Shown: positions 5,219 to 31,803, numbered from the stretch's first letter. The stretch: DNA of 32,000 bases from Candidatus Hermodarchaeota archaeon (GCA_048886185.1 JBHLKY010000010.1:168526-200525), one strand, 5' to 3'. The notes: generated by a model from the letters alone, not told the origin. Numbers and translations are program-made.

Positions 5219-6223
5219 TTAATGTCTACGCCGAATTAAGATCAAAACAAGAATGGACAGAAATAAGAAATATAAAGGAGTTCCTATAGTTCTTTGAGGT
5301 AATGTGACTTGAGAAGAAGTTAAAGACGATACAGAGGTCATGATATCTGAAGTAGTTGCAGTTAATCCCAATCCATTTGTGATATGTGAGAATAAATCAC
5401 TAATCGGAGTATATTCTTCTTTCCCTTTTGCTAATTCTTCTTCGAGGTTTAGCTTGACTACATTAGTGTAATTAAAATTTTGATAAATATAGATGTCTCG
5501 AAGGACAAGATCAAAAATATTACTATATTTTGTCGCGTATGTTCCTTCTTGATGAGTTGCGTCGAGAATATCTCGCAAAATCTCCAAAGTGAGGTTATCC
5601 TCGTGATCAATACTATCTAACATTTCGGAAGCAATTGGATAACGCCAACAAGGGGTCCAACCATTCCTAGGATATCCTACATTGAAATTCGTTGAAACAA
5701 GAAAACCATCACCCACATTCTTTCGAGTGAAGTTGAGTTCACCGTCAGTTCCAGGGCTTATGACAACTGCATTCCCCAAGGCATCTGCAAGATGAACTTG
5801 GTAGGCCATTGAAGTTCCCCAGTTGAATTCTTTTGCAAGCTGAAGAACCTCTGAAATGTCTGCACATTCATCAATGATTTGTTTGACAATCCATTCCTGA
5901 GAGTATGGGAGTTCAGGGTGATTATTTAATGGCATTTCCGGTAATGCATTGGCATCAAAACACAACCCCTTCTCATTCATACCTCCTTGAGGAAAATAAT
6001 TACCAAAACCAAGAAATACTCCCCCATATTTTCCTTCTTTTGGCTGTTCAAACCAGATATATGTATCTGGGTCATACCAGTCCTCATTATTGCCAAAAAA
6101 TGCTTTATTTCCCTTTGATACAGTAAAAATTGTACATGCTGATATTGATCTGGTAGTACTAGCGAGGATACAGAATAATGCCAATAACAAAGCGAAAGAT
6201 AGCGATTTTCTTAGCCAAATCAT
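5219..6223 (-). CDS. Secreted, C-terminally anchored Ntn-hydrolase (choloylglycine hydrolase / peptidase C45-like)
   Basis: Signal peptide followed by ACTIF (candidate N-terminal Cys nucleophile), GNNEDW, GGMNEKGL, STNF; S/T-rich linker, TM helix and RRRH tail. Confidence 0.82.
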   Translation of the reverse strand: MIWLRKSLSFALLLALFCILASTTRSISACTIFTVSKGNKAFFGNNEDWYDPDTYIWFEQPKEGKYGGVFLGFGNYFPQGGMNEKGLCFDANALPEMPLNNHPELPYSQEWIVKQIIDECADISEVLQLAKEFNWGTSMAYQVHLADALGNAVVISPGTDGELNFTRKNVGDGFLVSTNFNVGYPRNGWTPCWRYPIASEMLDSIDHEDNLTLEILRDILDATHQEGTYATKYSNIFDLVLRDIYIYQNFNYTNVVKLNLEEELAKGKEEYTPISDLFSHITNGLGLTATTSDIMTSVSSLTSSQVTLPQRTIGTPLYFLFLSILVLILIRRRH

Positions 6224-6419
6224 TTGGATGAAAGTTCTAGAGAAAGGATAATTTTTAAATTGTGATTAATGCAACGAAAAAATCCAAGCTGAATCCTCTT
6301 CAATAAACAATACAATCTATAAGAAGAATAAGCGAAATATAATAGTTCTAAAAGTAGGAGATGATTTTTATCTAATCAATGGTCAAAAACTTAAATCTAT
6401 GGATGATAATGTGTTTTTT

Positions 6420-7328
6420 CTAGATTCTTCCCAACAACAGAAGGCGAGCTAAACCAAGAAGGATCATTCCCATAACTAGAGTAGTAATTCTTCGTGTCTG
6501 CTCAATATTATCTTCTGGATTTTTGGCAAGAAGATACAGAACTAAGATAAGTAAGGCTGCTGTTAAAAGTATGATTCCAAGATAAATAGGATCATTTCCT
6601 AAAAAAATGAGAAAGGAGGAAGCAACAATCCAAGCAATAAAATAGCCAACTATAAGCACACGAACCGTTGTATCGGTTCCTAATTGAGATGGAATGGTTT
6701 TCACTCCTTGTACTAGATCTCCCTGAATATCTCCAAGATCTTTGTGGATTTCAAATACTAAAGCTGATATGAATACAAGAACTTGGGTTATTATAAAAAT
6801 AAGATCAATAGAAGGGGATGAGTTCACAGCAAGAGCACCAGTAATCAATGCTAAAGATAAACTCAGAGCTACTACAAAATTTTTCATAAGATAAGAGTTA
6901 TTATAGAACTTTAACCATGTAGAATATGCAATAGCAAGGACTATTCCAATAAATCCTATGAACAAAGCCTGTAGTTTAAAAAAGTATAATCCTATCAGAA
7001 TTGCAAGAATAGTCTCGATAATCGCAGCAAAAAGTGCAAAACGTGGTTCAACTGTTTCTTGTGGTAGTGGACGCCAAGGTTTGGAAATCTTGTCCGTTTC
7101 AATATCTTTGTAATCATTAAAAGTATCCATAGCACCTAGTAAGAGAATTCCACCAATAATTCCCATAATTATTTGAGTGAAGGATGGATAAACACGAAGA
7201 CCAAGTACCATTCCCAAGACACCAGTGCTGCCGATAATAACTCCATCTACAGGTCTGGCTAATAGTATTAGACCGTAAATAGATCGAAAAAAAGTATGAA
7301 TCTCTGTTCTGAGAGTTGAGCTGCTCAT
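6420..7328 (-). CDS. UbiA-family prenyltransferase, likely digeranylgeranylglyceryl phosphate synthase
   Basis: NDYKDIETDKISKPWRPLP and EIHKDLGDIQGD...GVKTIP Asp-rich motifs; about 8 TM segments. Confidence 0.85.
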   Translation of the reverse strand: MSSSTLRTEIHTFFRSIYGLILLARPVDGVIIGSTGVLGMVLGLRVYPSFTQIIMGIIGGILLLGAMDTFNDYKDIETDKISKPWRPLPQETVEPRFALFAAIIETILAILIGLYFFKLQALFIGFIGIVLAIAYSTWLKFYNNSYLMKNFVVALSLSLALITGALAVNSSPSIDLIFIITQVLVFISALVFEIHKDLGDIQGDLVQGVKTIPSQLGTDTTVRVLIVGYFIAWIVASSFLIFLGNDPIYLGIILLTAALLILVLYLLAKNPEDNIEQTRRITTLVMGMILLGLARLLLLGRI

Positions 7329-21466: not shown

Positions 21467-22693
21467 ATGATACATAAAGGTGCAAACTTCTTGAGTTTTA
21501 AGAGAATTAATACTCGTTCTAATGAACTTTCATCTTTAACTCTTGCTTTTAAAGCTCATAGAAGTCGATTTAAGAGATCATTTCAAATGATTCTTGATCG
21601 GAAGAGTCCTATAGAATTAAAACAATATCCAGATGAATTTCTCAATGCATTCAACAACATAAAATCTCCAGGAGTTGCATTAAAGCATTATTATAGGCTA
21701 ATTTTGTTGTTATTCCTAGCTAAGGATGACTTCACAGATCTGAATAAGAATGAAATAGATATAATATTCAAGGAGGTCGGAGTTGAATTATCCATCGATG
21801 TGTGGAAAAAATTAACAGGGCATTTAAGCAATGATTCTGATAATCTTCTGTACAAAATAAGGTTGGGGAAAGACACCAGATTATTATTTTCCTCTAATAA
21901 AGATTTAATTAAGATAATGACGAGATTATTAACAAATTCTCAATCTATTGAACCTCCTCATGACTATTCATTAGCCATATTTAGTAAATCAGCTCCTAAG
22001 GATAAAAATAACGTTGATTATTGTTTAGATTTTTCTAATTACTTCAAAGAAGGTTTACCATCTGAAGATCAATGGTTAATTATAGAGGACGAATTAACAA
22101 CTACAATTGAAACAATTTATGAAACTCACTTTGAAACAACACTTTTATTAAAAGAGTGTAAGCCTCATCCCTCTCTCTCTTTCATTCTAGGACATTCAGC
22201 TAATTATTTTGAGGGTTTGAAGTTATATATGTATCAGAATGGTCAATATTGGAAATACGAAAAGATAAATGAGAATATTCGTGCCTCTAATCACTGGAAT
22301 ATTTCTACAAAATATAGAAAACCTTTAAATGATGATGAAATTAATGTTTTAATAAGTGTAAGCGATCCAATTATACGATATGCCGAGAAGTATCTTCAAA
22401 AAGATAGAGAGGATACCAAATTCACTGTTCACTTTTCAATTAAACCTGAACCACAAGTAAACAGCATCACCGATCAAGATGATGCACTGAGAAAAGTTGA
22501 TGCTATTTACACGTATCTAACGCGACTTAAAACGAAGATCCCTTATATTAAGGTTCATTTATTTATTTGGGCCCAAGCTGCTTTCATTTCATTACTTGGA
22601 ATGAGACTTTCCTCTGTTGCCCTTGTTCAACTATATGAATTTGATCAAAAAACAGGAAATTTTGAACCTAGCCTATTACTAGATCGTTATTAA
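21467..22693 (+). CDS. SAVED-domain protein with an unassigned (winged-helix-like) N-terminal domain
   Basis: Residues ~166-406 show SAVED hallmarks: LDFSNYF, W, HPSLSFILG, YQNGQYW, VLISVS..I, VHLFIWAQAAFISLLG..L, VQLYEFDQKTGNFEPSLLL. Start uncertain (21467 or 21587). Confidence 0.82.
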   Translation: MIHKGANFLSFKRINTRSNELSSLTLAFKAHRSRFKRSFQMILDRKSPIELKQYPDEFLNAFNNIKSPGVALKHYYRLILLLFLAKDDFTDLNKNEIDIIFKEVGVELSIDVWKKLTGHLSNDSDNLLYKIRLGKDTRLLFSSNKDLIKIMTRLLTNSQSIEPPHDYSLAIFSKSAPKDKNNVDYCLDFSNYFKEGLPSEDQWLIIEDELTTTIETIYETHFETTLLLKECKPHPSLSFILGHSANYFEGLKLYMYQNGQYWKYEKINENIRASNHWNISTKYRKPLNDDEINVLISVSDPIIRYAEKYLQKDREDTKFTVHFSIKPEPQVNSITDQDDALRKVDAIYTYLTRLKTKIPYIKVHLFIWAQAAFISLLGMRLSSVALVQLYEFDQKTGNFEPSLLLDRY

Positions 22694-22847: not shown

Positions 22848-22980
22848 GCACTGTATCGCACTTTATTGAACTTGAAATATCTGCTTTATTTTTCTCTATA
22901 AAGAAATTTAACAAAATACTTCTTTGTTTAAAGTATAGAAAGGGTTTTTTCTATAGTACTAAAATTGCACATGTTCGCAC
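22848..22980 (+). promoter_or_regulatory. Pair of GCAC-N6-GCAC direct-repeat boxes (copy A)
   Basis: GCACTGTATCGCAC at 22848-22861 and GCACATGTTCGCAC at 22967-22980, 119 bp apart; both conserved in copy B. Confidence 0.65.
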
Positions 22981-23028
22981 CACTTATTTAAAACCATAAA
23001 ACTTAAATATATTTCTGAATAAGATATA

Positions 23029-23054
23029 TATTGACCTGGAATCATTGGTCAATA
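23029..23054. promoter_or_regulatory. TTGACC-N10-GGTCAA palindrome about 25 nt downstream of a TTAAATA box (copy A)
   Basis: TATTGACC/GGTCAATA arms; same core and spacing in copy B. Confidence 0.65.
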
Positions 23055-23080
23055 CCATTAGATTAATAAAGGTGATAAAC

Positions 23081-23146
23081 ATGGCAGATAAAGAGAAGAA
23101 AACAAAAACAAAAAAACCACGAGCTAAAAAAACAAAGAAGAAATAA
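23081..23146 (+). CDS. 21-aa Lys-rich micropeptide MADKEKKTKTKKPRAKKTKKK (copy A)
   Basis: AAGGTGA RBS 5 nt before the ATG; near-identical paralog at 31325-31387. Confidence 0.75.
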   Translation: MADKEKKTKTKKPRAKKTKKK

Positions 23147-23202
23147 TTTAGCTAAAGAATAGGTGATTTTTAAAATAATTTTTTTTTAAAAGGGTGATTG
23201 AT

Positions 23203-23322
23203 ATGAGAAAGGGACCAAAAAAGAAGCCAATCTATGAAGAAGAAGAAGAGGAAGAAGACTGGGAGGACGAGGACGACGATTGGGACGATGAAGACGAAGA
23301 TTGGGATGAAGAGGATAATTAA
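23203..23322 (+). CDS. 39-aa basic-head / acidic Trp-repeat micropeptide MRKGPKKKPIYEEEEEEEDWEDEDDDWDDEDEDWDEEDN (copy A)
   Basis: GGGTGA RBS 6 nt before the ATG; paralog at 31159-31272 with synonymous changes and only in-frame indels. Confidence 0.8.
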   Translation: MRKGPKKKPIYEEEEEEEDWEDEDDDWDDEDEDWDEEDN

Positions 23323-23341
23323 TCGTTTTAAAATTTTACTT

Positions 23342-23379
23342 GAGGTGAAATTTCCCCTTTATTAGGGGAACTCCACCTC
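23342..23379 (+). terminator. 3' hairpin of module copy A (terminator/stability element)
   Basis: GAGGTG/CACCTC outer stem and TTCCCCT/AGGGGAA inner stem with a TTATT loop, between convergent genes. Confidence 0.6.
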
Positions 23380-28586: not shown

Positions 28587-29093
28587 ATGTCAAGTTATAG
28601 TTCAGAAGAAACACATGACGTGAAAATCGAAAGCGTTAAACCCTTTGAAAAACGCCTAAATGTCGTTTTTATGGTTACAGAGAGAGGTGAAGAACGTGAG
28701 ATCAATAAACGAACGGGTGAAACGCATAGAGTGTGTGATTTCACTGTTGCAGATGAAACAGGGATTATCACTCTAACTCTTTGGAATGAAGATATTGATG
28801 TATTGAAAGAAGAAAATGTCTATAAATTATCAAATGGTTTTGCTAATGTATTTCAAAATTCCCTTAGACTATCAAAAGGAAAATTTGGAAGCATCGCTGA
28901 AGATTCGACTGTTTTTGAGGAAATAAACACAGACAATGATCGTTCCGCAGCACATGTAGATGATCCCCGTAGACAATCATACGGAAATAGAGGAGGAAGT
29001 TATCGATCCCAACAGTCATACGGATCATATGGAAGTGGACGTTCCTCTGGAGGATATGACAAACAGCGGTCTAATCGGCGTACTCGTTGGTAA
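28587..29093 (+). CDS. Single OB-fold single-stranded DNA-binding protein (archaeal SSB/RPA type)
   Basis: VADETGIITLTLWN, VYKLSNGFANVFQNSLRLSKGKFG; low-complexity R/G/S/Y tail. Confidence 0.9.
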   Translation: MSSYSSEETHDVKIESVKPFEKRLNVVFMVTERGEEREINKRTGETHRVCDFTVADETGIITLTLWNEDIDVLKEENVYKLSNGFANVFQNSLRLSKGKFGSIAEDSTVFEEINTDNDRSAAHVDDPRRQSYGNRGGSYRSQQSYGSYGSGRSSGGYDKQRSNRRTRW

Positions 29094-31324: not shown

Positions 31325-31387
31325 CTATTTCTTTGTTTTTTTAGCTCGTGGTTTTTTTGTTTTTGCTTTCTTCTCTTTTTCTGCCAT
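31325..31387 (-). CDS. 20-aa Lys-rich micropeptide MAEKEKKAKTKKPRAKKTKK (copy B)
   Basis: AAGGTGA RBS 5 nt before the ATG; paralog of 23081-23146. Confidence 0.75.
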   Translation of the reverse strand: MAEKEKKAKTKKPRAKKTKK

Positions 31388-31490: not shown

Positions 31491-31622
31491 GTGCGGACGT
31501 GTGCGATCATAACAAAACAAAATACGTTAATATAATACTTTAAATGAAAGATAAAGTTATTAAATGACTTTTCAGAGAAAAATCACACAGTCTTCATTGT
31601 TCAGTGAAGTGCGGTACTGTGC
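31491..31622 (-). promoter_or_regulatory. Pair of GCAC-N6-GCAC boxes (copy B)
   Basis: Minus strand GCACACGTCCGCAC (31491-31504) and GCACAGTACCGCAC (31609-31622), 118 bp apart. Confidence 0.65.
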
Positions 31623-31803
31623 AAAAAGTATAACAGATTATTTCTTAACCTATTTTGTCATATTTAAGCATTGAATTATGAAAATCTATTGATCTAAGGT
31701 ATAAGTATAATAATCCATTTAAAAAACATCATCAATCACAAAGTCTAGGATGGATTTAGTTTTCATTCATTACCTAGTTTGACCTAAAGATAACATTCAT
31801 TAG

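Follow-up and report, generated by a model that had tools for sequence, protein, structure and literature searches.

An acidic tryptophan micro-protein of Hodarchaeales resembles the C-terminal tail of PCNA and belongs to an accessory module with a SAVED-domain gene

The window, by which we mean the whole stretch of 32,000 nucleotides analysed here, carries two copies of a real gene for an acidic micro-protein whose tryptophans and C-terminal tip are conserved, whose motif recurs in this genome only in PCNA, and which is part of a module that is conserved but patchy in its occurrence. We tentatively favour the explanation that the micro-protein is a disordered polyanion with aromatic anchors, which by analogy with other acidic stretches would act as a mimic of the PCNA tail or of DNA and bind a Lys-rich partner.

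Two cassettes for an acidic micro-protein

The two genes, the small basic ORFs that precede them and the elements around them are located in the window as follows.

23203-23322, plus strand: acidic DW micro-protein, copy A, 39 amino acids plus stop (ATG at 23203, TAA at 23320-23322)
31272-31159, minus strand: acidic DW micro-protein, copy B, 37 amino acids plus stop, with KKPIY, 8 Glu, two DW units and the tip DWDDEDN
23081-23146, plus strand: Lys-rich ORF of 21 amino acids, first in cassette A, with a conserved KKPRAKK core; found before the acidic ORF in every cassette-type locus
31325-31387, minus strand: Lys-rich ORF of 20 amino acids in cassette B, led by GGTGA
22848-22980, plus strand: leader of cassette A, with two GCAC-N6-GCAC boxes (22848-22861 and 22967-22980) 119 nt apart
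31541-31672, minus strand: leader of cassette B, with a pair of GCAC boxes 118 nt apart (C10:200147-200016 in the genome)
23002-23011, plus strand: TATA-like box with a TTAAATA core, TTTAAATA in 4 of 5 aligned leaders and CTTAAATA in copy A
23029-23054, plus strand: palindrome TTGACC-N-GGTCAA at the expected transcript start, folding energy -9 kcal/mol
23342-23379, plus strand: terminator-like 3' hairpin after the acidic ORF (-20.4 kcal/mol, z-score -4.7; none of 200 shuffled sequences folds as stably)

Copy A begins with a basic N-terminal segment that contains GPKKK and KKPIY (residues 6-11 read KKKPIY) and continues through seven Glu and three DW units to the tip DWDEEDN. The initial annotation had described a KKPIY followed by poly-Glu, with seven Glu in copy A and eight in copy B, three DW units in the one and two in the other, and a common end EDN; translation of both ORFs confirmed this description in all its parts. 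The tryptophans of copy A (residues 20, 27 and 34) are spaced by exactly 7 amino acids and correspond to a repeat with a 21-nt period in the DNA (3.4 copies, 23245-23315, 78% matches, score 86 in Tandem Repeats Finder), whereas those of copy B (residues 26 and 32) are spaced by 6. The micro-protein is intrinsically disordered, being composed of a short Lys/Pro-rich N-terminus and a polyanionic, Trp-studded C-terminal part.

Each copy is part of a unit of about 600 nt that occurs twice, with an overall identity of 78%, and is arranged, in this order, as a conserved leader, a GGTGA-led Lys-rich ORF of 20-21 amino acids, a GGTGA-led acidic ORF and a 3' hairpin. The GGTGA ribosome-binding site upstream of the copy A ATG is 6 nt away from it. 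There are only 13 GCAC-N6-GCAC boxes in the whole genome, and nowhere outside the two cassettes do two of them stand 118-119 nt apart. The palindrome is conserved in its pairing even where its sequence is not: in the aligned leader of genome G072 both arms are altered in a compensatory manner (TTGGCT...AGCCAA). It could be a 5' hairpin or an operator.

A decayed third cassette is present in the same genome (G000:C10:158147-158460), about 10 kb before the start of the window. It consists of a 22-aa Lys-rich ORF followed by an acidic frame that contains a ..QDWENQDQWDDEDN.. stretch and is interrupted by two in-frame stops (TAA and TAG), a sequence which suggests birth and death among members of the acidic family. 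Elsewhere in the genome a lone Lys-rich ORF of 21 amino acids (G000:C20:37420-37482) has a GGTGA ribosome-binding site and a perfect hairpin formed from AGGAGGTG/CACCTCCT, and no acidic ORF comes after it. Between the two cassette copies, at 28587-29093 of the window, lies the gene for an SSB-like protein with a single OB-fold and a basic, Gly/Ser/Tyr/Arg-rich (RGG-like) C-terminal tail that ends in Trp. No Rfam family was found over the window, and a tRNA scan of it gave none.

The acidic ORF is a coding gene

We regard the acidic ORF as a real coding gene because it is preceded by a GGTGA ribosome-binding site, because the insertions and deletions that separate copy A from copy B inside the ORFs are all multiples of three, and because codon position 3 carries 65% of the substitutions in a codon alignment of 14 cassette-type homologues (421, 268 and 1260 substitutions at positions 1, 2 and 3 of the acidic frame, respectively). 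The sequence is of low complexity, and it might be argued that the ORF is non-functional, either as a GAA/GAT repeat that is open by chance or as the shadow of a shifted frame (23234-23365, plus strand) whose Lys/Arg/Thr/Gly-rich translation would be the real product. The shifted frame begins at an ATG that arises where TAT meets GAA, and most homologous loci keep this frame open. However, its products vary both in length (23-43 aa) and in sequence and its internal ATG, unlike the acidic ATG, has no ribosome-binding site before it, so that we judge it to be a by-product of the GAA repeats. This, together with the third-position bias of substitutions in the acidic frame and with the conserved position of the stop codon and of the C-terminal tip, makes it very improbable that the acidic ORF is without function.

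A metatranscriptome library of a relative contains a contig or insert of about 140 nt that is 90% identical to the window, covers 23076-23215 and thus links the basic ORF with the first part of the acidic one. It hints at a bicistronic RNA of basic and acidic ORF in that relative, DNA carry-over being possible in this library.

Conservation and distribution of the family

We assembled a set of 20 distinct acidic micro-proteins by searching at the DNA level and with a profile and by inspecting the DNA that follows SAVED orthologues; all of them come from one GTDB genus of the Hodarchaeales or from metagenome contigs with close SAVED orthologues. They are 37-45 amino acids long, and before the Trp they contain only a Lys/Pro-rich segment and a poly-Glu run. 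In the family alignment the start (Met, two residues, then G/A-P-K-K-K), the poly-Glu run and the tip [DE]W[DE]4[DN] are kept. Invariance of the Trp residues across homologues had been named at the outset as the point to check: W20 and W27 are each retained in at least 90% of the 20 members, every member has at least one Trp, and the lack of conservation that would have refuted the idea was not seen. Most members have two to four Trp, spaced by 5-7 residues; one has a single Trp with no further aromatic residue after it, and another a single Trp and a C-terminal Tyr. Of the earlier idea of a stand-alone multivalent motif, the first part thus stands, as the family is one of real, conserved, free Trp-repeat proteins, but multivalency is not essential, because two members have only one Trp.

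The subtype with KKP(I/V)Y, which includes copies A and B, is always preceded by a Lys-rich ORF with the KKPRAKK core. Other acidic subtypes, in genomes G057, G068, G074 and G076, are without an upstream Lys-rich ORF, and in the divergent member from G072 (L055) KKP(I/V)Y is missing and the Lys-rich ORF is present upstream.

The family profile found nothing in 61 other genomes of the class, and the DNA pattern of KKPIY followed by poly-Glu was absent from all 377 other genomes sampled from the phylum outside the genus as well as from the viral collection searched. Among 1.84 billion representative proteins the profile matched only one, itself a family member whose end is a read-through, and a word-index protein search with the peptide gave no scored match. 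Where contigs from DNA runs matched a small part of the stretch, the match was mostly to unrelated acidic repeats. A phage-like contig of 44.8 kb in IMG/VR (L085) encodes at 6014-6538 (minus strand) a protein of 174 amino acids, the C-terminal half of which is made up of a long run of acidic units each ending in Trp; its gene is flanked by a helicase-like gene on one side and by a 459-aa ORF without assigned function on the other. This protein bears the same kind of motif and is unrelated by descent to the micro-proteins.

The acidic-aromatic tail of PCNA

The one other place in which the motif is found in this genome is the replication clamp.

G000:C9:117150-118010 (L003:727-1584): PCNA, the sole PCNA gene, with a disordered acidic tail of about 35 residues that contains two Trp

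When the 4.84-Mb genome was scanned in six frames for acidic DW repeats, three ORFs came up, namely the two micro-ORFs and the C-terminal tail of PCNA. In a count that started from acidity, 11 of 17,988 ORFs of at least 30 amino acids had a 16-aa window with at least 11 Asp/Glu. Trp was present only in the same three, which argues that the motif of the micro-protein is more than a matter of chance. A search of the whole genome for C-termini with an aromatic residue at position -6 and acidic residues behind it matched, apart from PCNA and the two micro-ORFs, only an ArsR-like protein. The latter is a winged-helix protein of 240 amino acids (G000:C23:62150-62869, minus strand), whose C-terminus has KVPIY and then an acidic tract with Phe at -6.

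In the AlphaFold model of PCNA the clamp is confidently predicted (mean pLDDT 85) and the residues from about 253 onwards are disordered (pLDDT 35-47). Each of the 21 PCNAs obtained from the genus has an acidic-aromatic tail, which ends mostly like EDWDEDEE; one clade of the genus has Tyr in place of Trp and the end DEYDDEED. Shorter tails of the Tyr type occur in two genomes of another family of Heimdallarchaeia, and no such tail was present in six other Asgard genomes from five families. The relatives of this PCNA are from Hodarchaeota or Heimdallarchaeota, and the initial guess of an Asgard genome is thereby borne out. Hence the acidic-aromatic motif is a disordered tail peculiar to the replication clamp of this lineage, with no look-alikes other than the micro-proteins.

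How far does the likeness go? In the same organisms both have runs of Asp/Glu with one to three Trp (or Tyr) every 5-9 residues, and both have an aromatic residue at -6, with an acidic tract before it and five Asp/Glu after it, the last of which is Asn in the micro-protein. The PCNA tail differs in that it extends from a folded clamp and lacks a basic segment at its N-terminus, whereas the micro-protein is free-standing, accessory and patchy in distribution. Since the sequence is of low complexity and the likeness is one of composition and position, common descent of the two is not demonstrable. The micro-protein may have arisen when the 3' end of the PCNA gene was duplicated; between the two, 80 nt are 72% identical, a level that GAA/GAT repeats reach on their own. 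Nor is there fine co-variation, as genomes G070 and G071 have a divergent PCNA tail yet canonical DW micro-proteins; in the clade with Tyr-type PCNA tails no micro-protein was detectable. Literature searches returned nothing relevant on an acidic tail of PCNA in Asgard archaea, nor on SAVED in Asgard archaea.

An accessory module with an orphan SAVED gene

Directly upstream of cassette A lies the first gene of the module.

21491-22693, plus strand: SAVED-domain protein, 400 amino acids; open frame from 21467

The genome has no other SAVED gene, and orthologues of this one, at 64-87% identity, occur solely in metagenome-assembled genomes of Hodarchaeota-like type. The N-terminal 170 or so residues of the protein are helical and gave no credible match, neither in Pfam at E-values up to 10 nor in an Atlas feature search, and the AlphaFold model (mean pLDDT 47) was unusable for a fold search. 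PADLOC, applied to both micro-ORFs and two neighbours, recognized the SAVED domain only. Neither the SAVED protein nor the 274-aa neighbour of copy A is related to the divergent neighbour of copy B (259 aa).

The module runs from the SAVED gene through two GCAC-N6-GCAC boxes about 119 nt apart, the TATA-like box and the Lys-rich ORF to the acidic ORF, which comes last. This order is the same in all ten readable loci (those of genomes G000, G074, G072 and G071 and six metagenome contigs), the flanking genes being different, and one of the metagenome loci, L142, has a single exact GCAC box. SAVED was found in 6 of the 22 genomes of the genus, five of which are the genomes with the KKP(I/V)Y cassette subtype; in the sixth, G075, the gene is cut by the end of the contig and the downstream DNA is unread. 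Moreover, the SAVED proteins of G000 and G071 are 70% identical but their PCNAs only 53%, which hints at an accessory, transferable unit.

SAVED effectors of CBASS and of type III CRISPR systems (Cap4-like; PDB 6vm5, 6vm6) have a clear SAVED domain and an accessory character in common with this module. The module differs from these systems in that neither a cyclase or Cas10 nor a recognisable effector domain was found, its partners being two charged micro-ORFs; searches of the 96%-complete genome for a SMODS cyclase (PF18144), Cmr2 (TIGR02577) and Csm1 (TIGR02578) gave no match.

Histones as candidate partners

The genome has about ten histone-fold genes, one of which encodes a Lys/Ala/Pro-rich N-terminal tail of about 20 residues (G000:C12:134939-135202, minus strand). 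Orthologues of this tailed histone (L099-L112) are found in many genomes of the genus, with tails of 14-27 residues. These tails have counterparts, in composition and in the Met-Ala/Pro-Lys-Lys-Lys start, in the basic micro-ORFs and at the N-terminus of the acidic micro-protein, a likeness that makes histones, or histone tails, reasonable candidate partners and no more. A complex prediction for two tailed histones with the acidic peptide returned a score of 0.00, which is no verdict and counts neither way. A second type of histone has a short MAKRPKRKAG tail, and a protein of 365 amino acids (G000:C5:119180-120274, minus strand) has a histone fold at its N-terminus and a C-terminal tail that is strongly enriched in Lys/Arg. 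About 750 nt separate a histone gene from a gene for an acidic micro-protein in G072.

Comparison with known systems

Trp within acidic residues is a feature that the micro-protein has in common with the 'A' motif of WASP, WAVE and cortactin and with the W-acidic motif bound by kinesin light chains, and like the Arp2/3-binding 'A' motif it has a conserved Trp in an acidic stretch near the C-terminus. The initial annotation had seen in it an ancestral form of these motifs. Yet the micro-protein has no WH2, connector helix or other actin-binding repeat and no Pfam domain match, and the residue before the DW unit, that is two before the Trp, is Asp, Glu or Lys wherever present in the family alignment and never the Leu/Met of kinesin light-chain ligands. 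Kinesins are not known from archaea. The genome contains an ARPC4-like gene above the Pfam cut-off (G000:C8:129807-130094) and a single actin-family gene (C2:134554-135660, E-value 1.8e-132), which leaves none for Arp2 or Arp3, so that a full Arp2/3 complex may be lacking. Neither part of the proposal is supported: PCNA is the only other bearer of the motif, and an accessory gene restricted to one genus is too young to be ancestral. Hence, despite the presence of an Asgard actin and an ARPC4-like gene and of Trp in an acidic tract, we deem an ancestral, eukaryote-like motif for partners resembling Arp2/3 or kinesin light chains extremely unlikely. With the ARPC4-like gene and the one actin, a cytoskeletal partner is conceivable.

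DSS1/Sem1 (PF05160) is likewise small, disordered and acidic, has a conserved Trp and binds basic grooves of several partners. These include the proteasome lid, BRCA2 and TREX-2, and towards RPA it mimics DNA. It differs from the micro-protein in its length of about 70 residues, its two acidic blocks and its C-terminal helix. The Pfam family DSS1_SEM1 gave no match at E-values up to 10 with a first alignment of 14 members, and the family profile found no Protein Data Bank chain at E-values up to 10.

Bacterial SSB and gp2.5 and gp4 of phage T7 carry a polyanionic C-terminal tail whose terminal aromatic residue docks on basic patches of the replisome and which mimics DNA. There the tail belongs to a folded protein and the aromatic residue is the last one, whereas the micro-protein stands alone and has its Trp at -6.

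The closest working analogy, in our opinion, is with a disordered acidic stretch that screens a DNA-binding surface by means of aromatic anchors, as in APLF. The acidic domain of APLF has Y476 and W485, nine residues apart, both of which are needed to screen the DNA-binding surface of histones, and it competes with DNA (PMC6101569). It is, however, eukaryotic and part of a large protein, and has no sequence relationship to the micro-protein. Acidic domains of the APLF type are characterised by at least two aromatic anchors about 9-14 residues apart; most micro-proteins have two to four Trp at a spacing of 5-7 residues, and two members have one Trp each, in one of them together with a C-terminal Tyr.

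What might the micro-protein do?

In the explanation that we favour, the C-terminal part of the micro-protein, a free-standing look-alike of the Hodarchaeales PCNA tail, would act as a mimic of nucleic acid or of that tail, with carboxylates in place of phosphates and Trp side chains as anchors. It would occupy Lys/Arg-rich surfaces and thereby compete with DNA or PCNA, candidate surfaces being the Lys-rich N-terminal tails or the DNA-binding faces of histones, the co-encoded Lys-rich 21-mer and a reader of the PCNA tail. Both the mimicry and the binding partner are what we infer here, and they come close to the fallback idea, voiced at the outset, of a simple DNA mimic. The peptide would be made from a bicistronic micro-operon, the Lys-rich peptide first, with a dedicated promoter bearing the twin GCAC boxes. 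The adjacent orphan SAVED-domain protein probably controls this micro-operon; such control, which we infer, is plausible but, since the N-terminal domain of the protein matches no family, a guess. The whole unit would then be an accessory and possibly conflict-related module, and its patchy accessory distribution argues against a core role of the micro-protein in replication.

The main rival is a pairing of charges, in which the Lys-rich polycation is the active partner, possibly toxic and condensing nucleic acids, and the acidic peptide is its antidote, chaperone or coacervate partner, on the model of prothymosin-alpha and histone H1 or of antitoxin and toxin. In the KKP(I/V)Y subtype the two ORFs are indeed always adjacent and in the same order, their products have opposite net charges, one contig from the RNA library spans both, and the module is accessory and patchy, as conflict systems are. 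But the acidic subtypes of G057, G068, G074 and G076 do without an upstream basic ORF, a lone basic ORF exists elsewhere in the genome, and opposite charge would leave the near-invariant Trp and the fixed C-terminal tip unexplained. We therefore consider charge pairing doubtful, though worth keeping in mind. The linkage to SAVED invites a different thought, namely that the acidic peptide, or the pair of peptides, is a ligand or regulator of the SAVED protein that replaces or competes with a cyclic oligonucleotide. Acidic ORF and SAVED gene are strictly linked in all ten readable loci, the genome has one SAVED gene and no detectable SMODS cyclase, Cmr2 or Csm1 at 96% completeness, and aromatic rings and carboxylates could imitate bases and phosphates. 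Such a ligand would be without precedent, however, and copy B and other subtypes are distant from any SAVED gene, while G057, G068 and G076 have the acidic family and no SAVED gene at all, so that this proposal appears unlikely to us.

Likeness to DSS1/Sem1 in size and composition (small, acidic, Trp within Asp/Glu) would fit a mimic of single-stranded DNA directed at an OB-fold or other basic grooves, as in RPA or SSB, and an SSB-like OB-fold gene does lie between the two copies. The neighbourhood of this gene is not conserved in other genomes, though, and a family confined to one genus that matches neither DSS1_SEM1 nor any Protein Data Bank chain makes a DSS1-like role decidedly unlikely.

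Implications

Hodarchaeales have been reported as the archaea closest to eukaryotes. In the literature that we searched there was no description of a long acidic-aromatic tail on PCNA, of free micro-protein copies of it or of their linkage with an orphan SAVED gene and a polycation resembling a histone tail. It is conceivable, if rather unlikely, that SAVED protein, Lys-rich peptide and acidic Trp peptide together represent a novel type of module for conflict or dormancy in archaea, one without an enzymatic effector, or that the acidic peptide is a ligand of SAVED. In the conflict or dormancy version the SAVED protein would sense a signal and bring about the production of two disordered micro-peptides, one imitating the N-terminal tail of a histone and the other the C-terminal tail of PCNA, which would jam or retune the replication-coupled handling of chromatin. 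Were such a module real, PCNA of Hodarchaeales would itself carry a tail that handles histones, and archaea would have an equivalent of the connection between PCNA and the histone chaperone CAF-1.

Should the tail and its free copies bind histones or a replisome partner, archaea would possess signalling by disordered short motifs at the replication fork, a mode of signalling thought to be typical of eukaryotes, and they would also possess a defence-like module whose outputs are peptides and not enzymes.
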